Positions 1 through 10,260 of a stretch of DNA of 10,260 nucleotides are shown in pieces. Positions within the stretch are counted from its first letter, which is position 1, and each line of letters starts with the position of its first letter. The notes below the pieces were generated by a model that was given only the letters and a program-made list of their open reading frames with translations, had not been told where the DNA came from and did not search any database. This DNA is from a virus. The position numbers and the translations under genes were made by a program. The stretch lies in UHGV virus genome UHGV-0142988; one strand, written 5' to 3'.

Positions 1-38
1 CGAGTCTCGTGGGCTTCGGAGATGTGTATAAGAGACAG
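1..38. other. Sequencing adapter remnant (Nextera/Tn5 mosaic end, one-base indel) at contig start; artefact
   Basis: Positions 20-38 read AGATGTGTATAAGAGACAG, the 19-bp Tn5 mosaic end, preceded by GTCTCGTGGGCT(T)CGG, the Nextera read-2 adapter with one extra T. Confidence 0.85.
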
Positions 39-42
39 CTCA

Positions 43-238
43 TGTCCGCCCCACACGGACACTTCCCCAAATTTGTCCGTCCACCACGGACACTCACAGA
101 CACAGATGTCCTCTGTACGCACACAACGGACAAAATAATAGTGCAATATACACAACTATTACTGGAAATCAATCCAATAATTGTGCACATTGCACTATAA
201 AAATCAGTTATTTTAGAACATTATGCTCTTGTGTCCGT
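43..238. repeat. Terminal-region short repeats TGTCCG(T)/ACGGACA: two hairpin-capable inverted pairs (~43-61, ~74-92) plus solo copies (~126-132, ~232-238)
   Basis: Six copies of the 6-7-mer within ~200 bp directly after the adapter; the first two pairs are inverted repeats with 5-7 nt spacers. Confidence 0.6.
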
Positions 239-269
239 GTGTGAGAGACACATACAGGGGTGATGTTTT

Positions 270-283
270 CGAACATGTGTTCT
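270..283. promoter_or_regulatory. Candidate LexA/DinR SOS box (Cheo-box-like, cGAAC-atgt-GTTCt), with an overlapping GTTC-tat-GAAC
   Basis: GAAC-N4-GTTC with 5' flanking C, ~17 bp upstream of the predicted -35. This is the only such site I found in the window. Confidence 0.5.
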
Positions 284-299
284 ATGAACAATATGGACT

Positions 300-328
300 T
301 TGAATAAATCTAAATAATTACATATAAT
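300..328 (+). promoter_or_regulatory. Candidate sigma-A-type promoter for the rightward early operon
   Basis: TTGAAT (-35, ~300-305), 17-bp spacer, TATAAT (-10, ~323-328); ~30 bp upstream of a GAGGTG RBS and the ATG at 359. Confidence 0.5.
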
Positions 329-358
329 AATGTTATCAAATGAAAGAGAGGTGAACAG

Positions 359-508
359 ATGACAGATTACGAAGAAAGCTACAAAAATTATCTTGCATGG
401 CTCACTCCACGTGAGCTATTGCATGAATACAAGATCATGCGTTTACCGTGGCGTTATCGGGAACGAAAATGGATCAAAGAAGAAATAGAAAGTAGGTGTG
501 TGTACTAA
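359..508 (+). CDS. Small hypothetical protein (49 aa; MTDYEESYKNYLAWL...), below the ORF-track length cutoff
   Basis: ATG with GAGGTG RBS ~7 nt upstream; first ORF after the promoter; read by eye. Confidence 0.35.
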   Translation: MTDYEESYKNYLAWLTPRELLHEYKIMRLPWRYRERKWIKEEIESRCVY

Positions 509-602
509 TGTTGGATGCTATATTGTGGTTTGGTTTTGGTGCTATATTAATTTTTCCGTATGGAGTTTGGTGTGGGGCAAAATGGTCAGGAGGATATAAG
601 AA

Positions 603-806
603 ATGAAAAATTATTGTGATATATGTTTTACATGTAATGATGCTGAAGTTTGTCATTCATGTAGCCAGCCAGAGATTTGTTCCGAATTTAAAAAGTGTTT
701 TGATCATAAGCCTTATATAATGTGGGAGAAAATGACAAGTTTTGACGATATCATGAGATGTGTTGAGAAATGGAGGGTGTACAATGAGCAGACCGTTAAA
801 CAGTAA
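603..806 (+). CDS. Small Cys-rich protein (67 aa), possible zinc-ribbon-like
   Basis: AGGAGG RBS ~7 nt upstream of the ATG; CxxCxxC...CxxC spacing in the N-terminal 32 residues (seven Cys). Confidence 0.55.
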   Translation: MKNYCDICFTCNDAEVCHSCSQPEICSEFKKCFDHKPYIMWEKMTSFDDIMRCVEKWRVYNEQTVKQ

Positions 807-1651: not shown

Positions 1652-3733
1652 ATGGAAAATCTGTATACTATTGACACATATAATTATAATAGAATACGGA
1701 ATTTACCATGTTTACATGATACTAGGTCTAACAAAGGAAGTAAAAAAGCAAAAGGTTATAAAAATTGTCTGTGTGCTTTCGATATCGAAACAACTAGATT
1801 GGAAGATATCGAGCAGTCAATAATGTATATCTGGCAGTTTTCAATTCTTTTTCTTGATGATTTACATGTTGATACGATAATTGGAAGAACGTGGACAGAA
1901 TTTGAGTTATTTCTTGATAATCTTATGAATGACGATAACTATGCATATTATATGATTTTTGTTCATAATCTTTCATATGAATTTCAGTTTTTGCGTGGTA
2001 TATATACATTTTCACCGGATGAAGTTTTTGCCATAAAATCACGTAGAATATTGAAATGTGAAATGTTAGAGCGTTTCGAGTTTCGTTGCTCATATTTACA
2101 AACTAATATGTCACTAAATACGTTTACCTCAAAAATGAAAGTAAAACATCAGAAATTATCTGGTGAAAAATTCGATTATAGTAAAAAGCGTTTTCCATGG
2201 ACAGAACTAACCGATTATGAAATAAAGTATAGTACATACGACACGATTGGACTAGTTGAAGCAATGTATAAACGTATGATACTGTCAAATGACAATCTAT
2301 ATACACTACCATTAACGTCAACCGGTTATGTACGTCGTGAAACGAAAAAAGCCATGTATGGTTGGTCACGAAAACACAAGGATATATTTCCCACTATAGA
2401 TGTTTTCGATCTGCTAGAGGAGGCGTTTCGGGGCGGAGATACTCACGCTAACCGTTATTACTCAGGAACCGTGATACGTGCATATGGTAAAAATATTCTA
2501 GGAATCGGTTCATATGATAGGTCATCCTCTTATCCTGACGTTGTGTTGAATTGTGTTTTCCCGATGACACGTTTTGTATATATCGGATCAATAGATGAAT
2601 CTGATATAGATAAGAAACTGGATAGAGGAAAAGCACTCTTATTCCGATGTAAAATAACAGGTATTGAGCAGATCGACAAGTATTACGGATCGCCCTATAT
2701 TTCATATTCAAAATGTAGAAATGTTTCATGTGAAACACTTGACAATGGGCGTATTTTAAGTGCTGACTATATTGAAATAACGCTCACTGATATTGATTAT
2801 GAGATAATGAAACGTGAGTACAAATGGAAACATTTTGAAATAACAGAGTGTTATGAGAGTAAATACGGAGCATTGCCAGAACCGTTGAAAGACATTTTCC
2901 GTAAATATTATACTGACAAAACAGAGTTAAAAGGAATCGTGGAACAGGAACTTTTCTACAACTTGCAAAAGGCTTTGCTTAACGCTGGCTATGGAATGAT
3001 GGTTCAATCACCCGTGAAACAGTCGTTAATATTTACAGAATCGGCAGAAAACATATATACAGTTGATGAAAATGTTTCACGTGAAACATTACTCACTAAA
3101 TATAACAGAACAGCTTTCTTGCCTTATCAATGGGGTGTTTGGGTAACAGCATGGGCACGCCAGCGATTGAAAGAGGGTATAAACATAGTTGGAGATCGTT
3201 ACGTTTACAGCGATACGGATTCAGTAAAATATATAAAAGTAAGAGGTGATAATATTGACGAGTTATTTGATAGATACAATTCTGAGAGAAAAGAGCAAAG
3301 TATCTCCAATTCCGCATACGCAACAGACCGTTATGGCGTTAAACATTATATGGGGGTGTATGAATTCGAGGATACGTATACTGAATTCTCCACCATTGGT
3401 ACAAAAAAATATGTCTATAGAACTAAAGATGGAAAACTACACGCAACAATCGCAGGAGTTAATAAAAAGCTTGCACCGGATGAGTTGGAAGAACATGGAG
3501 GAATTGAAGCTTTCAAAACTGGATTTACCTTTTTACGATCAGGAGGAACTGAAAGCGTGTACAATGACGTTCCTTATGGGGATTACACCGTGGAAAATCA
3601 TGTTTTAAAAATTACACAAAATGTAGTTATCAGACCGTCAACTTACACAATAGGAATAACAGATGAGTACCGTAGGATTTTGGCAGACGCAAGAACATTA
3701 AAAGAATTTAAATATACTTTTGACAAAAATTAA
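1652..3733 (+). CDS. Protein-primed family-B DNA polymerase (693 aa)
   Basis: AGGAGG RBS. Exo I FDIETT, Exo II HNLSYEF, Exo III YSTYDTIGLVEAM, motif A YDRSSSYP (Dx2SLYP-like), motif B KALLNAGYG (Kx3NSxYG-like), motif C YSDTDS, KxY in TIGTKKYVY. Confidence 0.95.
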   Translation: MENLYTIDTYNYNRIRNLPCLHDTRSNKGSKKAKGYKNCLCAFDIETTRLEDIEQSIMYIWQFSILFLDDLHVDTIIGRTWTEFELFLDNLMNDDNYAYYMIFVHNLSYEFQFLRGIYTFSPDEVFAIKSRRILKCEMLERFEFRCSYLQTNMSLNTFTSKMKVKHQKLSGEKFDYSKKRFPWTELTDYEIKYSTYDTIGLVEAMYKRMILSNDNLYTLPLTSTGYVRRETKKAMYGWSRKHKDIFPTIDVFDLLEEAFRGGDTHANRYYSGTVIRAYGKNILGIGSYDRSSSYPDVVLNCVFPMTRFVYIGSIDESDIDKKLDRGKALLFRCKITGIEQIDKYYGSPYISYSKCRNVSCETLDNGRILSADYIEITLTDIDYEIMKREYKWKHFEITECYESKYGALPEPLKDIFRKYYTDKTELKGIVEQELFYNLQKALLNAGYGMMVQSPVKQSLIFTESAENIYTVDENVSRETLLTKYNRTAFLPYQWGVWVTAWARQRLKEGINIVGDRYVYSDTDSVKYIKVRGDNIDELFDRYNSERKEQSISNSAYATDRYGVKHYMGVYEFEDTYTEFSTIGTKKYVYRTKDGKLHATIAGVNKKLAPDELEEHGGIEAFKTGFTFLRSGGTESVYNDVPYGDYTVENHVLKITQNVVIRPSTYTIGITDEYRRILADARTLKEFKYTFDKN

Positions 3734-3781
3734 CATATGTGTTATAATTCATGTAAAGAGATATTACAAGGAGGTGATAAT

Positions 3782-4036
3782 ATGAAAATTACACGTTCAT
3801 TAACAGTTAACAAGATCAACGTTATCTGCTACGATCCTGAGAATAAGTGTGAGTTTGTACAGGAAGTTGGTTTGATCGGAAATCTTACTGATGAGCAGAT
3901 CAGCAAAGAGATTAAAAAAAGAAATTTTGGAATTGTTATTGATTGGGAAAGAACATCAGAAGAAACAAAATTATACGGAATGGATGCCGAAGTGTTTTTA
4001 AAAAATGCAATCATTATTAAAGAAAAGGAGAACTAA
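3782..4036 (+). CDS. Hypothetical small protein (84 aa from internal ATG)
   Basis: AGGAGGTG RBS ~6 nt upstream of the ATG at 3782; sits between polymerase and ATPase genes. Confidence 0.55.
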   Translation: MKITRSLTVNKINVICYDPENKCEFVQEVGLIGNLTDEQISKEIKKRNFGIVIDWERTSEETKLYGMDAEVFLKNAIIIKEKEN

Positions 4037-4039
4037 ATC

Positions 4040-4474
4040 ATGGCAAAGAATTATACTATCATTAAATCATCGGGAAACCTTGATACCTATTCAGAATATG
4101 AACTCATCGAGTCACCTGCAATCGTTTCACTTAAAAACGTAGAAAACAAAGGACTTATCTGTGTTGGAGCGTGGGTGAAATATCTTACCACCGACAATAT
4201 CGGAAATGAAATAACCTGCATTTCAGTGCAGGACGCAAACACAGGAGAGGTATTCTCAGGTCAGTCAGCACCTTTCAGAGAAACATTCGAGGCTGTTACC
4301 GATCGTATTTCTGACATGGACGAAGCTCCAGAAATGTTTTTCATCGAGGTTCTTCATAGACAGTCAAAGTCAGGTCGTGATTATCTTATGTGCGCACTTG
4401 TTTCCCCGGATCGTGCTTTTGCCCGCATGGGATATACTGAAAAGAACATTCCTATGCCAGAGCCCCAGAAATAA
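4040..4474 (+). CDS. Hypothetical protein (144 aa); an SSB or DNA-binding role is only a positional guess
   Basis: AAGGAGA RBS before the ATG at 4040; tightly packed with neighbours; no motif recognised. Confidence 0.6.
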   Translation: MAKNYTIIKSSGNLDTYSEYELIESPAIVSLKNVENKGLICVGAWVKYLTTDNIGNEITCISVQDANTGEVFSGQSAPFRETFEAVTDRISDMDEAPEMFFIEVLHRQSKSGRDYLMCALVSPDRAFARMGYTEKNIPMPEPQK

Positions 4475-4475
4475 T

Positions 4476-5525
4476 ATGTTATCGTTATACGAAAATAGCG
4501 GGTATCTATCGATACCCGCTATTTTAGGATATGGACAAAAGTTTAATTACATCTGGGGTGGCCGTGGTACGGGGAAAACTTACGGTGCTCTTAAATACTG
4601 TATTGAACATAAAAAAATTTTTGCTTATATGCGATCATTGCAAACACAAATTGATATGATTAAAATTCCAGAACTTTCACCTTTTAAAAAATTAAATCGT
4701 GATTTAGGATGGTCAATATATCCGAAAAGTGTCGGGAAAAATATTGCTGTGTATTATAATGCAGAAATTGACGAAAATGGTAAAATAAAATATACTGGAG
4801 ATATACTCGGTTATTCCATAGCGTTAAATACATTTGCCAATTTACGAGGTTTTGATGCATCAGACGTTGAGATAGGAATATATGATGAATTTATCCCCGA
4901 AAAACGTGAACGCAAAGTTGAAAATGCTGGATATGCTTTTAAAAACGCATATGAAACAATGAATCGAAACCGTGAACTTGATGGAATTAATCCGATACAG
5001 TTTTTATTGTTTTCTAATTCTGAAAGTTTATCATGTGATATGTTTATAGAGAATAATTTAATGGAAAAAGTATCGAGCATGGATATTAATAAACAATCTA
5101 TGTCTATTATACGTGATAGAGGTATTGGACTTTTTAACTTGTATGATTCGCCGATTTCTGAAAAGAAAAAAGACACAGCTCTGTATAAAATGTCTGGATC
5201 AGATTCAGCATTTAACAGGATGGCACTAGGAAATGAATTTTATTCCGCTGATTATTCAGGAATTAGAAGCATGAACATTAAAGAACTGATACCACTATGT
5301 AAAATGGACGCTATTACAATATATCAGCACAAGAGAAAAGACTTAATATATGTAACACGGCACAGCTCTGGTACACCGCCAGAGTATTCCAATACAGATA
5401 AGGATGTAAAAGCTTTCAGACGAGATTTTATTTATTTATGGGATATGTATTTATCAAACAAGGTGCTGTTTGAGGATATCACAAGCAAGTCCCTATTTGA
5501 GATTTATTTTAAAAATAAATATTGA
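4476..5525 (+). CDS. P-loop ATPase, phi29 gp16-like DNA encapsidation ATPase candidate (349 aa from the ATG right after the upstream stop)
   Basis: Walker A GGRGTGKT near the N-terminus and Walker B EIGIYDEF about 110 residues later. Size and motif spacing fit phage packaging ATPases of the ASCE/FtsK-HerA class. Confidence 0.75.
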   Translation: MLSLYENSGYLSIPAILGYGQKFNYIWGGRGTGKTYGALKYCIEHKKIFAYMRSLQTQIDMIKIPELSPFKKLNRDLGWSIYPKSVGKNIAVYYNAEIDENGKIKYTGDILGYSIALNTFANLRGFDASDVEIGIYDEFIPEKRERKVENAGYAFKNAYETMNRNRELDGINPIQFLLFSNSESLSCDMFIENNLMEKVSSMDINKQSMSIIRDRGIGLFNLYDSPISEKKKDTALYKMSGSDSAFNRMALGNEFYSADYSGIRSMNIKELIPLCKMDAITIYQHKRKDLIYVTRHSSGTPPEYSNTDKDVKAFRRDFIYLWDMYLSNKVLFEDITSKSLFEIYFKNKY

Positions 5526-5671: not shown

Positions 5672-5708
5672 CATATGCAGAGTGTCAAAGCCTGCATATG
5701 TTTTGTTT
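5672..5708 (+). terminator. Candidate intrinsic terminator after the ATPase operon
   Basis: 9-bp stem CATATGCAG / CTGCATATG with an 11-nt loop, followed by TTTTGTTT. Confidence 0.55.
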
Positions 5709-5754
5709 CACGTGAAACATTTATCACCTTTCTTTAATGTTTCACGTGAAACAT
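5704..5754. promoter_or_regulatory. Tandem palindromic operator-like sites: TGTTTCACGTGAAACA (~5704-5719) and ATGTTTCACGTGAAACAT (~5737-5754)
   Basis: Two perfect 16-18-bp palindromes 33 bp apart, directly upstream of a TATAAT-like element (~5774-5779) and the RBS of the gene at 5791. Confidence 0.6.
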
Positions 5755-5988: not shown

Positions 5989-6230
5989 CGATTAACTACA
6001 ACAAAAATATCAGAGGTGTGTATATCGTCGCAACGAACACAGGGCCTCTGATGGTCAGGGCAGAGCCTAGTACAGACGGAACAGTTATCGCAGAAATGCC
6101 GAAAAACACAAAATGCATCTGTCTAGGATGCTATTCTGGAAACTGGTATGCAGTCATTTACGAACATGACAGTATCATTTCCACCGGCTTTTCTCACAAA
6201 AATTATCTCAGGAGGGATTATAAGATATGA
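5985..6230 (+). CDS. Stand-alone SH3b-like cell-wall-binding domain protein (81 aa)
   Basis: Pattern GVYIVATNTGPLMVRAEPSTDGTVIAEMPKNTKCICLG...GNWYAVIYEH...GFSHKNYLRR resembles bacterial SH3 domains; no catalytic domain attached. Confidence 0.6.
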   Translation: MTINYNKNIRGVYIVATNTGPLMVRAEPSTDGTVIAEMPKNTKCICLGCYSGNWYAVIYEHDSIISTGFSHKNYLRRDYKI

Positions 6231-6421
6231 CGTTAGACAACTTAATTACACTCATTTCAGCAGGATTCACGAAAGAAGAGATCCTCACAATGTCAGGTAC
6301 AGTCACCCAGCGTGCCCCACAGCCACAGCCACAGCCACAGCCACAGCCACAGCCACAGCCACAGCCACAGCCACAAAATACAAAGCAGAAATTGCAAAAT
6401 CAAGATCTAAATACAAATTAA
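6227..6421 (+). CDS. Small protein with a (PQ)10 linker-like repeat (64 aa)
   Basis: ATGA overlap with the upstream gene; contains the in-frame hexamer repeat. Confidence 0.5.
   Translation: MTLDNLITLISAGFTKEEILTMSGTVTQRAPQPQPQPQPQPQPQPQPQPQNTKQKLQNQDLNTN
6317..6375. repeat. Tandem hexanucleotide repeat (CCACAG) x ~9.8
   Basis: Perfect tandem copies read directly in the sequence; encodes PQPQ... in the 6227 ORF frame. Confidence 0.95.
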
Positions 6422-6608
6422 GTGATATTTTAATTCGTGTAGAAAAAAATAGCCTTTATTTTTATTTGCGTAAATGATTCCTTTACTTTTAGCACTAAAA
6501 GCAAGAAAACTATAATTTTATAATTTTCTTTGTTTAAGGCCAGTAATGTTTTCGGCGTTTCAATTGTCCTCGACGAAGGCCGCTTCCGCGACCTTATCTA
6601 GCCCGTGC

Positions 6609-6965
6609 TCATTGAGAACGATCAACTACCATGTATGTTGGTTGACACAGGCTGCCGCGTTCCTGTAACCAGTAGTAATCAAGATCCGCAACACGCATAT
6701 CCAACCCCGAATCCACACGATTGATCTGTAACCGCAGCCCTACAGTATCTTTGTACGATAAACCAGATTTAACATTGTACTTGTACTTAACCCCGCTTTC
6801 TTCTTCAAAAGATTTGAGATAAGGGGGGATTTGCTTCTGAATTTCTTTCAAACAAATAACTTCCCCATCAATTACGAACGGCTTTTCAGTTTTACCGTCA
6901 GGAATAGTAGCCGCAATTGTGGTTAATGGAACTATCGACAACAGTACTGATAATGCTCTTTTCAT
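6609..6965 (-). CDS. Secreted small protein with N-terminal signal peptide (118 aa from the MKRALS start)
   Basis: AAGGGGA RBS before the internal ATG; MKRALSVLLSIVPLTTIAA is signal-peptide-like with no lipobox Cys; ~20 nt downstream of the partner gene. Confidence 0.6.
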   Translation of the reverse strand: MKRALSVLLSIVPLTTIAATIPDGKTEKPFVIDGEVICLKEIQKQIPPYLKSFEEESGVKYKYNVKSGLSYKDTVGLRLQINRVDSGLDMRVADLDYYWLQERGSLCQPTYMVVDRSQ

Positions 6966-6987
6966 CTGTTCTTCCCCTTGAATATAA

Positions 6988-7599
6988 TCATTGTTTAGAA
7001 CAAATTTGTGTAATGGTTGCATTATGGTTAAATTCAACATCAATTACTTTTATAGTATTATCATTAAGTACAGATACAAAATAATTACTTGACGAATTTC
7101 CGTACTTCCTTGAACCATCTGCTGCAATCTTGTTGAATTTAGCAGTATACACACTATCTTTATCGCCGGGAATTGGCATTCGACTGATTAATTCATTATC
7201 GGAAATAGTATAATAAATTAAAATTCCTTTATCTGAATAGTAACCTGAATCGCTTTTTGTTCCCTGTCGAGTTTGTATTATTGCATCGAACTTATCGCAT
7301 TTATAAACATTGGTTTTGGCCTTTTCAGTACTGGTAGACGTTGAAGCCTTTACATCAGTACTTTTATCTTGTGAAACAACCCCGGAACCGATACCTACCG
7401 AAACGACAAAGACAATAAAACTCATGCCTAACGACGTAATCAAAGTACGGAACTTTCCCCGACCTTTATTTCTGGAATAGTTTGAAACTTTCCTGAAAGT
7501 AAGTACTGCAAGGATCACACAAATGATGAAAACGACAAGCCCGGCCATAAAATCCCTCAAACGTTGTGTATCAAAGGCAATCATAGTATCACTTCGCAA
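6988..7599 (-). CDS. Two-TM membrane protein with Ser/Thr-rich ~130-aa extracytoplasmic domain (203 aa, or 198 aa from ATG 7584)
   Basis: Hydrophobic segments AGLVVFIICVILAVLTF and LITSLGMSFIVFVVSVGIGSGVV separated by a basic loop; TTG start in the track with an in-frame ATG 5 codons later. Confidence 0.6.
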   Translation of the reverse strand: MRSDTMIAFDTQRLRDFMAGLVVFIICVILAVLTFRKVSNYSRNKGRGKFRTLITSLGMSFIVFVVSVGIGSGVVSQDKSTDVKASTSTSTEKAKTNVYKCDKFDAIIQTRQGTKSDSGYYSDKGILIYYTISDNELISRMPIPGDKDSVYTAKFNKIAADGSRKYGNSSSNYFVSVLNDNTIKVIDVEFNHNATITQICSKQ

Positions 7600-7601
7600 T
7601 A

Positions 7602-7624
7602 CATTGATCGATTAAAGCGATCAA
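7602..7624. promoter_or_regulatory. Palindrome ATTGATCG-attaaag-CGATCAAT in a divergent control region (7600-7700) that also carries three ATCAAT copies
   Basis: 8-bp inverted repeat just upstream of the leftward gene start and upstream of the rightward leader. Confidence 0.35.
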
Positions 7625-7699
7625 TTTTTGATTTTCGATCGGTTAAATCTATCAATATCTATTAATTGAAGACAAATCAATAGGTAAAAACGATCAGAC

Positions 7700-8100
7700 G
7701 TTGGTCAGTACTTCGGAAACACCAGAAGTATGGTTTGGGTCTGCCGTTTAAACGCCCTCAGAAAACCGCTAAGGTCTCTTTATCGCATATGGCTTGGGAT
7801 TTCAGCCTTTGGCTAAAATCGCTTTCAGGGGGGCTTCTTGTGCGTTTTGTCGGGAACACCATCATGGAGGGGGATAAATCGGATCGAAGTCGCTTCGCTC
7901 TGGTCAGTACTGGAAGGGTTAGCTTATCTGGCGAGGGAAGATGAATTGCCAGGCTTCATGAAGATGGTTGGTTTTGTGGACAAGAAGAACTGCCGTTTTG
8001 AGTATTCCCCCTCACACCCAACAAACCTACCCATTAGCAAGGGGGAGTACTTTCTCGTAGTATACAGAACGAATAAATTCTTTGTATACTTCCGTTTTAT
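7700..8100 (+). ncRNA. Candidate structured 5' leader / cis-regulatory RNA (class unassigned)
   Basis: ~400 nt without a convincing ORF, visibly more GC than flanks. 12-bp stem (~8001-8012 / 8040-8051, one G-U pair) with a C/A-rich 27-nt loop, then an AT-rich hairpin (~8059-8090) plus U-tract just before the downstream start. The 11-mer TGGTCAGTACT occurs twice (~7703, ~7901). Confidence 0.35.
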
Positions 8101-8111
8101 CCTAAAGCGAT

Positions 8112-8801
8112 TTGATTATGGACGAGAATAATAAAGAAGTTATTGAAATAAGACCAGAAGATAAGGACTTTTTCGCAGAATTTATTGATTGTGAAGGTCC
8201 AATTATCCAAGATTCAATTGATCATAAAAAAATCACCCTCGCACTTGATAAAGCCCACGACATAAGAAAGTTTGAAATAGATCTCTATTGGAAGCGTGCT
8301 ACATACTTCTTCGCATTCTTCACTGTAATAACAGCTGCATTTGGTTATTTGTTCACCCATGACAACTATACTTTCTTAGCCCCTGCACTTGCGATCATTG
8401 GTTCTGTTTTTGCTTTATGTTTTTGTTATGTGAATATCGGTAGTAAGTATTGGCAAGAAAACTGGGAGTTTATAATTGATAAAATTGAATATTATGTCAC
8501 AGGAAACCTTTATAAACTTTTCTTCTTCGAAAACCATAGAACCAAACGCCCATCAGTCACTAAGATTAATATATTTCTAAGCAAGCTAATTATAGCTACA
8601 TGGTACGCTTGCTTTATACTTTCCATGCACCAGATATGGAATCAAAGCATGGTATTAAATGTCTCTTATATTATCCTTACCATATATAGCACTGGAACGA
8701 CATTATATTACTGCGATAAAACTGTTGCAGACATATCGAACAATGATAAAGAATCACCACGATTCTTTAGATTCAGAAATCCTAATTACATAAAATCATA
8801 A
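8112..8801 (+). CDS. Multi-pass (about 4 TM) membrane protein with ~60-aa soluble N-terminal domain (229 aa; probable ATG at 8118)
   Basis: Four hydrophobic segments (ATYFFAFFTVITAAFGYLF; FLAPALAIIGSVFALCFCYVNI; INIFLSKLIIATWYACFILSMH; MVLNVSYIILTIYSTGTTLYY); weak RBS. Confidence 0.65.
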   Translation: MIMDENNKEVIEIRPEDKDFFAEFIDCEGPIIQDSIDHKKITLALDKAHDIRKFEIDLYWKRATYFFAFFTVITAAFGYLFTHDNYTFLAPALAIIGSVFALCFCYVNIGSKYWQENWEFIIDKIEYYVTGNLYKLFFFENHRTKRPSVTKINIFLSKLIIATWYACFILSMHQIWNQSMVLNVSYIILTIYSTGTTLYYCDKTVADISNNDKESPRFFRFRNPNYIKS

Positions 8802-8805
8802 ACAT

Positions 8806-8824
8806 GGGGGCATTTGATGCCCCT
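8806..8824 (+). terminator. Candidate terminator hairpin GGGGCAT-ttg-ATGCCCC just after the stop codon
   Basis: Perfect 7-bp GC-rich stem with 3-nt loop; the downstream U-tract is weak on plus and better on the minus strand. Confidence 0.45.
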
Positions 8825-9065
8825 TGTAAATTGATAATCCGACCTAAAAACACTTTGAGTACTTCATTTGTCAGTACTGTTATCTGTTTGAGCGAAAGCG
8901 AGTAACGGCTTTGGCGTGCTTTCGAGTACTGCGAGAAAAACGCAAAGTTACGATCTGATATTTGGTTTTTATAGAGACTAACAAGCAAAGCGAAGTTAGG
9001 CTCTTTAGATACTGAATATCAGTAAGGCTAATACATTCAAAATATCAGGTGAAAGGCAATATTAT

Positions 9066-9194
9066 ATTAAGTTACGGTTATTCACCCCACTGCATAAAAC
9101 AAGAATAACCTACTGATTTTACGGACTTTTATTTGAATAATAATTCACTAATAATCATGATAACCGTATTTCTTAGTTTTAAGTTACGGTTATA
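9066..9194. repeat. 15-bp direct repeat TTAAGTTACGGTTAT (~9067-9081 and ~9179-9193) with an inverted partial copy ATAACCGTA (~9161-9169)
   Basis: Read directly; lies in a convergent intergenic region abutting the 3' end of the gene at 9202. Confidence 0.7.
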
Positions 9195-9201
9195 GGTACG
9201 A

Positions 9202-9669
9202 TTAAACAATGGTTCGTAGATATGCAATCAGATCTTTCGCTGAGGCATTACTGTTCAATAATTCCTGTACTGCGTTCTTCTGTTCGTCGGTTAATGGCTT
9301 ACCAGGCAATGCTTTCTTTAGTCCACATAGCGTACCACCTTCTTCTACAAACTTATCCAATGCTTTAGCAACTGCGGTACAGGCTAATTTGTACTTCTCG
9401 ATAGATGATTCACTTGCTGCAAATTTCTTCATCTGATCTGAACGGGTTAAGGTAAGATAATACTTAACCTGTACTTTTGAAAGCTCTGTAGCGTGTTTGA
9501 CGATGTAGAAGACATCTTTAACAGGTAACTTGTACTTTCCCAATGATTTACACTCTTGAATCGTCTGGTTAATTATTAGAGTTGCTTCTGATGTTAGGCC
9601 ACTGTAAGTAACACGTTTTAGTGCTTCTTCTAACTTTTTATTGTTATAAATCCTTTCTTTTTTTGCCAT
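9202..9669 (-). CDS. Hypothetical protein (155 aa)
   Basis: Clean ORF with ATG start; protein-like composition; no motif recognised. Confidence 0.6.
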   Translation of the reverse strand: MAKKERIYNNKKLEEALKRVTYSGLTSEATLIINQTIQECKSLGKYKLPVKDVFYIVKHATELSKVQVKYYLTLTRSDQMKKFAASESSIEKYKLACTAVAKALDKFVEEGGTLCGLKKALPGKPLTDEQKNAVQELLNSNASAKDLIAYLRTIV

Positions 9670-9759
9670 GATAAATACCCCTATGGAAGATGTTAATTAA
9701 TATTGGCCTGATGTATTCCTAATACTCAGGCTTTTTATTTAAGAAGAAAATGGGTGGGG

Positions 9760-10026
9760 TTATACTCCACGTACCTTCTTGAACCATTCACGATACTCTG
9801 GCACTTTATTTTTGCGTAAATTGCTAATGAAATCTTGATCGCAATTAACTTTAAGTAAATTACAAATCCTAGCACTTGTCATATCACTTAGTAGGATATT
9901 CTCGTACTGAGAGAATGTTAGTTGAATGAAATTAACCTTTTCTTTCTTTCGAACTGATTTGTTCAATGACTTCCTATTAGTCCTGATTTTATTTTTTGTT
10001 TTTATTTTACCGTTTTTCTTTGACAT
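9760..10026 (-). CDS. Small basic protein with possible C-terminal helix-turn-helix (88 aa)
   Basis: GGAGTG RBS before the ATG; very basic N-terminus (KKNGKIKTKNKIRTNRK) followed by an HTH-like segment. Confidence 0.55.
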   Translation of the reverse strand: MSKKNGKIKTKNKIRTNRKSLNKSVRKKEKVNFIQLTFSQYENILLSDMTSARICNLLKVNCDQDFISNLRKNKVPEYREWFKKVRGV

Positions 10027-10260
10027 TTTGTCACTCCTCTAAATTAAAATTCATCTCATGGTTAACCTCCTACGGCTGTTGTTTATGTTCGATTGGCTAT
10101 ATGTTAACGGGCAAAATTGCCCCAATCAAGGAATAGTTGCAACTTTTTCTTGACAAGATCATTACTATTCAAGTCAAAAAATCATATATCATTTAGGCAC
10201 TATCTTTGGGTAATGACTCCAACTTATTGATAGTGTTTTATGTTCAGATAATGCCCGATG

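Follow-up and report, generated by a model that had tools for sequence, protein, structure and literature searches.

Host LexA is a recurrent regulator of temperate phages, acting directly in CTX-phi and indirectly in many others. In the linear phage GIL01 this control is direct: the operators dinBox1 and dinBox1b are located downstream of the start site of P1, and LexA binds weakly to a half-site beside the full box (PMC4551915); in the GIL01 sequence, CGAACAAGCGTTTT follows the P1 −10 element, and the boxes lie outside the 73-bp inverted terminal repeat (ITR). GIL01 persists without obvious plasmid modules (PMC11511902). Another host regulator, Spo0A, has sites near the phi29 early promoters and both phi29 origins, where transcription is repressed and p6-dependent initiation is blocked; there are six 0A boxes in phi29 versus one in Nf, and this number explains the differing behaviour of the two phages (PMC2731898). 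The clostridial LexA operator is GAAC-N4-GTT[T/C], with GTTT in lexA, recA and ruvC and GTTC in uvrB, and the C. difficile operators are given as GAAC....GTTY cores (PMC4234289). A 2024 survey of more than 2000 phi29-like podophage genomes makes no mention of LexA, SOS or lysogeny, and the known phi29-like phage-plasmids, of ~29–34 kb, carry partition and toxin-antitoxin genes (PMC11476376). Our literature search found no description of LexA-type operators for phi29-like podophages or inside their terminal repeats. Direct LexA control of phages (GIL01) and the use of a host regulator by phi29 were known already; new, within the literature searched, are the arrays of LexA-type operators in phi29-like terminal repeats.

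The stretch of DNA analysed in the present study, referred to as the window, comprises 10,260 nucleotides and represents one whole SPAdes contig (ENA ERZ1755413 NODE_2955). Its phage part extends from 39 to ~6375 only, related phage genomes aligning up to 6375, and the segment 6317–10208 matches an E. coli chromosomal island at 99.9% identity, with the last ~57 bases of the window belonging to IS1. The phage and E. coli sources overlap solely in a (CCACAG)n repeat at 6317–6375, and the window is a chimeric assembly join of phage and E. coli DNA (6317–10260). The right half of the window, being E. coli DNA, was excluded as a part of the phage element, and the structure of the ITRs was read from relatives because this DNA replaces the right arm. 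The box region falls in the genuine phage arm. Relatives reach 5–10 nt further left than the phage part of the window, and three of them (L002, L030 and L092) start with GCGATTATCTCATGTCCGCC; judging from these genomes, the true genome terminus is at least ~10 nt beyond base 39. The features of the window are collected in Table 1.

Table 1 Features located in the window (positions refer to the whole stretch; "." marks features given without strand)
Feature	Position	Strand	Remarks
Nextera transposase adapter (…AGATGTGTATAAGAGACAG)	1–38	.	Non-biological
Terminal TGTCCG…CACGGACA repeats, outer part of the ITR	43–126	+	Repeats D10, I15, I17
Imperfect inverted repeat, 23-nt arms with 15 nt between	138–198	.	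I7; start of the clade-specific module
Degenerate box-like palindrome AGAACATTATGCTCT (GAAC-N5-GCTC)	215–229	.	
Repeat-unit spacer TGTGTCCGTGTGTGAGAGACACATACAGGGGTGATGTTTTC	230–269	+	
LexA-type (Cheo/SOS) box CGAACATGTGTTCT	270–283	.	Core GAACATGTGTTC at 271–282
Conserved GAAC half-site within TGAACAATATGGACT	286–289 (segment 285–299)	+	Abuts the −35 element
Early sigma-A-type promoter TTGAAT-17-TATAAT	300–328 (TTGAAT 300–305, TATAAT 323–328)	+	Predicted start ~335
Strong Shine-Dalgarno sequence AAAGAGAGGTG of the first early gene	343–353	+	ATG at 359
Two small early ORFs, 49 aa (359–508) and hydrophobic 32 aa (508–605)	359–605	+	
Cys-rich ORF, 67 aa	603–806	+	
ORF, 85 aa	784–1041	+	
Putative terminal protein, basic, 216 aa	998–1648	+	Directly 5′ of the polymerase
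Protein-primed family-B DNA polymerase, 693 aa	1652–3733	+	
p6-like dsDNA-binding protein	3737–4036	+	
SSB-position protein	4040–4474	+	Phi29_Phage_SSB in the orthologous position of L190, L192
phi29-type Gp16 packaging ATPase	4476–5525	+	PF05894 1.3e-8, phrog_2150 3.8e-20

The initial annotation had placed a LexA/DinR box of the Cheo architecture, GAAC-N4-GTTC, ~17 bp upstream of a TTGAAT-17-TATAAT promoter, and both elements were confirmed. The box agrees with the core in 12 of 12 positions and with the extended Firmicute Cheo consensus CGAACRNRYGTTYC in 13 of 14; scoring was done by consensus matching rather than with a position weight matrix. The −35 element follows after 16 nt counted from the 14-mer CGAACATGTGTTCT and after 17 nt counted from the core GAACATGTGTTC, in accordance with the distance given at first, and the promoter itself scored 10/12 in a promoter scan, ranking second on the + strand of the window. 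Among the 10,260 bases there is a single exact GAAC-N4-GTTC, against a mean of 0.11 in shuffled sequences and at least one occurrence in 22 of 200 shuffles, and this statistic alone lends the box modest weight. A chance match was ruled out because the box is conserved across the clade and such sites are concentrated at the genome termini, as described below. The assignment of the box to the Firmicute LexA (Cheo-box) architecture is supported by its sequence.

The position of the box relative to the promoter is less usual than its sequence. Its centre lies at ~−58.5 relative to the predicted start site, upstream of the −35 element and outside the region (−35, −10 or start site) that LexA operators usually overlap, while the GAAC half-site adjoins the −35. 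This centre, together with the 16-nt gap, forms an atypical geometry for simple steric repression, and repression from such a position would be possible, in a non-canonical way. The GAAC columns of the half-site are kept in 43–45 of 47 distinct relatives, and by analogy the half-site of segment 285–299 could be a weak second LexA site.

The promoter had been described as driving a terminal protein/polymerase operon, and this description holds firmly for the polymerase. A profile built from polymerase homologs retrieved phi29 DNA polymerase (1XHX/2EX3, E = 3.7e-13), and PF03175 was found in 6 of 9 members of the polymerase family, with the window protein alone remaining sub-threshold in Pfam; when the polymerase and the putative terminal protein were compared with PDB and Pfam as single sequences, nothing was returned, and the profile search alone succeeded. 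The window polymerase is 35% identical to the DNA polymerase of Amedibacillus phage AD70P3. The other half of the description, the terminal protein, is putative and follows from gene position only: the corresponding ORF has no Pfam, PHROG or PDB match, and it is conserved at 82–98% within the clade and at 36–72% in sister lineages. Family matches were likewise not obtained for the early ORFs in 603–1648. The polymerase in the window and the ITRs in full-length relatives bear out the proposal of a linear, protein-primed replicon. Further downstream, the 3737–5525 region matched phrog_6370, PF05894 and phrog_2150, and genes for a holin and an SH3 protein are likewise present in the window; Rfam gave no RNA family matches in the window. 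In the Shine-Dalgarno region, a 19-mer, TATCAAATGAAAGAGAGGT, is common to many gut viral contigs.

The 49-aa and 32-aa ORFs located directly behind the promoter occur in every box-bearing genome (84–100% identity) and are absent from the 80% sister lineage, and weak homologs, at 48% and 42%, are present in the box-less L186. They have neither Pfam nor PHROG matches and no similarity to GIL01 gp7, and their candidacy for the role of a LexA cofactor is only speculative. GIL01 gp7 is 50 aa long, and the early ORF that co-occurs with the box is 49 aa long. The Cys-rich early ORF is variable and does not co-vary with the invariant box.

Conservation was followed in 65 relatives retrieved from IMG/VR with 76–97% polymerase identity. 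Promoter-proximal sequences were compared for all contigs of these ~14 kb metagenomic phages that extend into the region, and 45 of the 47 distinct ones carry CGAACAT[G/A]TGTT[C/T] in identical register, related genomes in such counts being non-independent samples. The CGAAC and GTT columns are invariant in 44–46 of the 47; the central purine is G in 37 and A in 9, the terminal pyrimidine is C in 28 and T in 17, the flanks vary, and a perfect 14-bp palindrome, CGAACATATGTTCG, is found in L027 among others. These natural variants remain inside the operator definition because clostridial operators accept both GTTT and GTTC (PMC4234289). When 33 distinct genomes with a length of 13 kb or more were scanned, 59 GAAC-N4-GTTY sites were located in the terminal 500 nt and 7 in the interior, corresponding to densities of 1.79 and 0.017 per kb, a difference of ~100-fold. 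The distance from the innermost box to the −35 element is fixed at 16–17 nt in all members of the clade, which suggests a relationship between box and promoter. At the same time, the ITR columns around the box are nearly as conserved as the box itself, so the conservation footprint does not single it out.

In full-length relatives, the ITRs are 230–313 nt long and often 100% identical. Six genomes are complete at both ends, and in five of these the left and right arms cease to be identical precisely at the final bases of the innermost box. Because the box marks the inner edge of the inverted terminal repeats, it is present at the right end too, and the boxes are placed symmetrically, ~290–300 nt from both termini. 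In the left arm the box is followed by the promoter; in the right arm, the unique sequence behind it is the 3′ end of the last tail gene and contains no promoter, and the right-end copies could persist merely through ITR homogenisation. The outer terminal repeats (43–126), the presumed core of the protein-primed origin, have motifs that are also found at the ends of the box-less L186, L188, L192 and L001.

The box is, moreover, part of a repeated unit. The spacer and one box form a unit of 53–80 nt with the box at its 3′ end, and relatives carry 1–4 tandem units per end, most genomes having a single box per end; the start-to-start spacings of boxes range from 42 to 82 nt, with 53 the commonest. 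The array of L046 contains four perfect boxes and a fifth, promoter-proximal site of the GTTT type, and L020 has two perfect boxes with a similar promoter-proximal GTTT-type site. The 215–229 palindrome of the window sits where the genomes with tandem units (L020, L042, L044 and L046) have a true box, and it is probably a decayed box copy. The central segment of the module was found in both orientations among relatives, at 40 window-like and 12 inverted ends; in L023 its orientation differs between the two ends of the same genome. The location of the box in the ITR, its presence at both ends and its variable copy number suggest a role beyond the simple repression of one promoter.

Sister lineages with 80% (MT837693/L001, L188, L106 and L125), 70% (L186) and 56–57% (L190 and L192) polymerase identity were compared. 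The box and the whole ~170-nt module (window ~125–299) are absent from all of them. The terminal TGTCCG…CACGGACA repeats are common to the sisters except L190, whose end is partly similar, and all sister lineages have a near-consensus early promoter in the equivalent place, TTGCAA-17-TATAAT in L001, L188 and L192 and TTGACA-17-TATAAT in L186. No box was found near the ends of L001, L064, L066, L180–L193 and other small linear phages with different ITRs, and it is absent from the distant relatives examined, namely AD70P3 of the Guelinviridae, Clostridium phage HM2 and gut metagenomic records. In INPHARED, the 120–360 segment matched MT837693 over the promoter part and nothing else, and PLSDB gave no match. 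Because the sister and distant lineages carry no box near their ends, the box was gained specifically in this clade and is not ancestral, and its distribution over the lineages compared shows one discrete gain with subsequent retention and amplification. For protein-primed replication as such, the box is dispensable, since its box-less sisters replicate with the same terminal repeats.

Judged by gene content, the element is a minimal phi29-like podophage, not a tectivirus. The full-length relatives, of ~13.7–14.2 kb, encode a phi29-type SSB, Phi29_MCP, a connector, the Gp16 ATPase, a tail lysozyme/amidase and tail genes, all genes being co-directional, and no repressor, integrase, partition or toxin-antitoxin gene was found among their genes. 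Pfam and PHROG searches likewise detected no LexA-like, HTH or recognisable DNA-binding-domain protein among the phage proteins. The nearest cultured relatives are the Amedibacillus phages AD70P2/P3 (Guelinviridae) and Clostridium phage HM2, with ~35% polymerase identity. A gut member of the Bacillota is the likely host because of the strong Shine-Dalgarno sites, the lysis set of holin, SH3 protein and lysozyme/amidase, and relatives that infect Clostridium and Amedibacillus. Some Bacillota lack LexA. In 185,579 species-representative genomes no member of the clade was found, the single match being a polymerase of 49% identity, encoded by a 6.5 kb contig that was binned to a Christensenellaceae MAG, and the protein database matches had no named sources. 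All contigs of the clade are at most 14.7 kb long and come from metagenomes or viromes, none from isolate genomes; the host may simply be uncultured.

From these data, it seems probable to us that the box is a true operator of the host LexA repressor, kept by selection. It belongs to a module of ~170 nt that, from its distribution, was gained by one clade of ~14 kb phi29-like phages between the origin repeats and the early promoter and that now forms the inner edge of both ITRs. An operator for host LexA is the simplest reading because 12–14 bases are identical to the operator, the variants respect its degeneracy, the phage has no LexA-like or HTH protein and the Cys-rich ORF does not co-vary with the box. 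We infer LexA binding, the direction of its effect and any carrier state, and the scheme may be outlined as follows. In the undamaged cell, LexA dimers would occupy the box and perhaps also the GAAC half-site adjoining the −35, and this occupancy would damp the single early promoter of the terminal-protein/polymerase operon, either through occupation of both sites or by blocking upstream contacts of RNA polymerase. As the boxes lie ~290–300 nt from both termini, LexA could also affect initiation at both origins: bound near the two ends, it may hinder the p6-like nucleoprotein complex for protein-primed initiation, in a way comparable to Spo0A on phi29. RecA-stimulated self-cleavage of LexA would release this brake, the trigger being DNA damage or, possibly, single-stranded DNA from the phage's own strand-displacement replication; a self-reinforcing release, in which such replication intermediates activate RecA, is speculative. 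Phage development would in this manner be tuned to, or sped up by, the SOS state of the host.

The initial annotation had taken the site as a hint that this may be an inducible, temperate-style linear element comparable to GIL01/Bam35. Spelled out as an SOS-inducible linear plasmid-prophage, LexA and a phage cofactor would silence the early operon during stable carriage and DNA damage would induce it. What stands of this proposal is an operator-type site by a conserved early promoter, the sole one of its kind in a linear genome with protein-primed replication; the half-site adjoining the full box recalls dinBox1/dinBox1b, the 49-aa ORF co-occurring with the box has a counterpart in length in the 50-aa gp7, and GIL01 itself persists without obvious plasmid modules (PMC11511902). 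The assignment to GIL01/Bam35-type elements had to be abandoned, however: the virion genes are phi29-type and not tectiviral, the box precedes the −35 element instead of following the start site, and BLASTP of the GIL01 regulator gp1, the LexA-like activator gp6, the LexA cofactor gp7 and gp8 against all early ORFs gave a best E of ~0.6, so that no homologs of gp1, gp6 or gp7 were found, although proteins as short as these might still be related in fold. The plasmid-prophage reading is, in our estimation, unlikely, considering that repressor, partition and toxin-antitoxin genes are missing, unlike in the phi29-like phage-plasmids (PMC11476376), that the clade is absent from the 185,579 species-representative genomes and consists of metagenome or virome contigs of at most 14.7 kb, and that the 49-aa ORF has a homolog in L186, which carries no box.

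The terminal location of the box admits two other explanations. The box might not be a LexA site in vivo and might serve instead as an architectural or replication element of the ITR or as the operator of a phage-encoded or another host protein, resembling the Cheo box in sequence only, with its palindromy perhaps driving unit duplication and setting the ITR boundary. The exact coincidence with the inner ITR boundary in 5 of the 6 both-ends-complete genomes, the right-end copy without any promoter, the position at the junction of tandemly amplified units, the almost equal conservation of the flanking ITR, the other palindromes in the ITR and the two small conserved early ORFs that co-occur with the module are all consistent with such a function, which we nevertheless regard as rather improbable: an arbitrary palindromic operator with half-sites of 4–5 nt would, by our estimate, show the 12–14 nt operator identity by chance in only ~1 in 250 to 1 in 1000 cases, the natural variants fall solely on LexA-tolerated positions, box-less sisters replicate with the same terminal repeats, and no phage protein has a recognisable DNA-binding domain. 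Alternatively, LexA might bind, but the boxes, numbering 2–8 per genome and multiplied by copy number, would titrate it and induce the host SOS response without damage, or would exert their main effect on the start of replication at the two ends. This explanation is purely inferential, and most genomes with their one box per end, as well as the fixed distance of 16–17 nt between the innermost box and the −35, fit it poorly; we consider it very unlikely, even though boxes occur in 1–4 copies at both ends, including the promoter-less one, the ~−58 position is ill-suited to occlusion of RNA polymerase, and, on phi29, Spo0A prevents initiation by disturbing p6 at the two origins (PMC2731898).

The reading as a host LexA operator can be extended to the arrays as a whole. 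According to this more tentative and, in its full form, doubtful scenario, the clade, otherwise obligately lytic in appearance, would have co-opted the host SOS repressor: amplifiable LexA-operator arrays, placed at the inner edges of the two ITRs, would gate the early promoter and initiation at both ends, a dormant or carrier state lacking its own repressor and partition system would be released by damage or by displaced strands, and the number of boxes would be a fast-evolving dial of the strength of the hold. With a box of this type by its first promoter and in both terminal repeats, an apparently lytic phage may sense host DNA damage. If the boxes are functional, common small phages of the human gut would couple infection to the DNA-damage state of the host without lysogeny genes, and this would bear on the reshaping of gut viromes by antibiotics and inflammation, on the lytic/temperate dichotomy and on which phages are selected as "strictly lytic" for therapy. 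Genomes that are otherwise near-identical form a natural series with 0, 1, 2, 3 and 4 boxes, which renders the hypothesis directly testable.

Compared with the described systems, the motif itself is that of chromosomal Firmicute Cheo boxes, GAAC-N4-GTT[C/T], as in clostridial lexA, recA, ruvC and uvrB; the chromosomal boxes overlap the core promoter, whereas the box described here lies in a phage terminal repeat, ~58 nt upstream of the predicted start. The Guelinviridae and other small phi29-like podophages (AD70P2/P3, HM2 and the gut "Bacteriophage sp." records MT83xxxx), with 35–80% polymerase identity, share with this clade the gene order, the Gp16 ATPase, Phi29_MCP, the connector and the TGTTTCACGTGAAACA palindrome, but they carry neither the LexA-type box nor the ~170-nt module. 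GIL01/Bam35 (Betatectivirus) and this phage both have linear protein-primed genomes of ~14–15 kb with ITRs, and GIL01 resembles it further in the GAAC-N4-GTTY box by the promoter of the replication operon, in the adjoining half-site and in having no CI-type repressor. The two differ in their boxes, which in GIL01 lie downstream of the start and outside the ITR, whereas those described here precede the −35, belong to the ITR, occur at both ends and vary in number. They also differ as phages, GIL01 being a tectivirus with demonstrated lysogeny and this phage a phi29-like podophage known from sequence. The use of Spo0A by phi29 is the closer analogy. phi29 and this phage alike lack lysogeny genes and, close to the early promoter(s) and to both ends, have sites of the type that a global host regulator recognises, and in both groups the number of sites differs between close relatives; the pattern of sites near an early promoter and both origins is reproduced here by box location alone. 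In phi29, the regulator is Spo0A and the signal is sporulation, as shown experimentally, whereas here LexA and DNA damage are proposed from sequence; unlike in phi29, the sites of this clade belong to the ITR and are tandemly amplified.

The window, which is the entire contig NODE_2955 of ENA ERZ1755413, is chimeric, with bacterial DNA from 6317 to 10260. Positions 6317–10208 are 99.9% identical to an Escherichia coli chromosomal island, which encodes a RipA/8xMP octameric membrane protein and is adjoined by an integrase gene in the matching E. coli chromosomes, and the last positions, 10204–10260, correspond to an IS1 terminal repeat. Phage homology ends with base 6375, and the join between the phage and E. 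coli DNA is a (CCACAG)n repeat common to both; within the phage reading frame that starts at 6227, it codes for a PQ repeat. At the other end, the contig starts with a Nextera transposase adapter (…CGGAGATGTGTATAAGAGACAG) at positions 1–38. The first phage base is 39, and the sequence falls short of the true terminus by at least about 10 nt; the relatives start with GCGATTATCTCATGTCCGCC.

The outer part of the inverted terminal repeat (ITR; 43–126 and 231–250) carries multiple TGTCCG/CGGACA motifs in direct and inverted orientation, which persist in lineages whose polymerase identity is as low as 56% and are probably recognition elements for the terminal protein-polymerase complex or for an origin-binding protein. 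Between the arms of an inverted repeat within the ITR (138–198), a segment of ~15–25 nt was found in both orientations, with 40 of the relatives' ends window-like and 12 inverted, and in the related genome L023 the left and right ends differ from each other in this respect. The two orientations suggest flip-flop inversion of the segment via hairpin/cruciform formation or inter-arm recombination.

Coordinates of early-region features and repeated elements in the window
Feature	Position	Location or character
19-mer TATCAAATGAAAGAGAGGT	332–350	5' UTR and Shine-Dalgarno of the first early gene
Cys-rich early ORF, 67 aa	603–806	seven Cys within residues 1–32, with CxxC spacings among them
16-bp palindrome TGTTTCACGTGAAACA	2722–2737, 3073–3088	within the polymerase gene
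16-bp palindrome TGTTTCACGTGAAACA	5704–5719, 5738–5753	ATPase-holin intergenic region

The product of the Cys-rich early ORF is possibly zinc-binding. Genomes that are otherwise nearly identical carry this ORF in highly diverged alleles of at least two types (about 80–100% vs 37–49% identity), and such divergence suggests cassette exchange or diversifying selection, for instance if the product serves in anti-defence.

Exact matches to the 19-mer are present in at least 119 viral contigs (loci L067–L140 among them), including unrelated phages of 20–195 kb, often with several copies each, and further small linear phages (L075, L097, L099, L103, L111 and L121), with ITRs quite different from that of the window, carry it at both termini. 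The 19-mer may be a strong translation-initiation cassette common to the phages of one host group, and its distribution could help to identify the host. The only taxonomic hint for the wider group, and a weak one, is the binning of L180 (JAZNMA010000061.1), a 6.5 kb contig with a 49%-identical polymerase, into a Christensenellaceae MAG; the contig is probably that of a phage, either mis-binned or co-binned with its own host.

The four copies of the palindrome are divided equally between the polymerase gene and the ATPase-holin intergenic region, where the pair may flank a late promoter. Full genomes have further copies near 8.6 kb and 11.3 kb. Conservation of this element reaches far outside the clade with the LexA-type box, to the box-less sister lineages at 56–80% polymerase identity and to the distant cultured Amedibacillus phage AD70P3 and Clostridium phage HM2, and the polymerase gene is a frequent site for it in these other phages as well. 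The palindrome resembles an operator for a phage regulator shared across the family, perhaps an analogue of p4, or another DNA-level signal.
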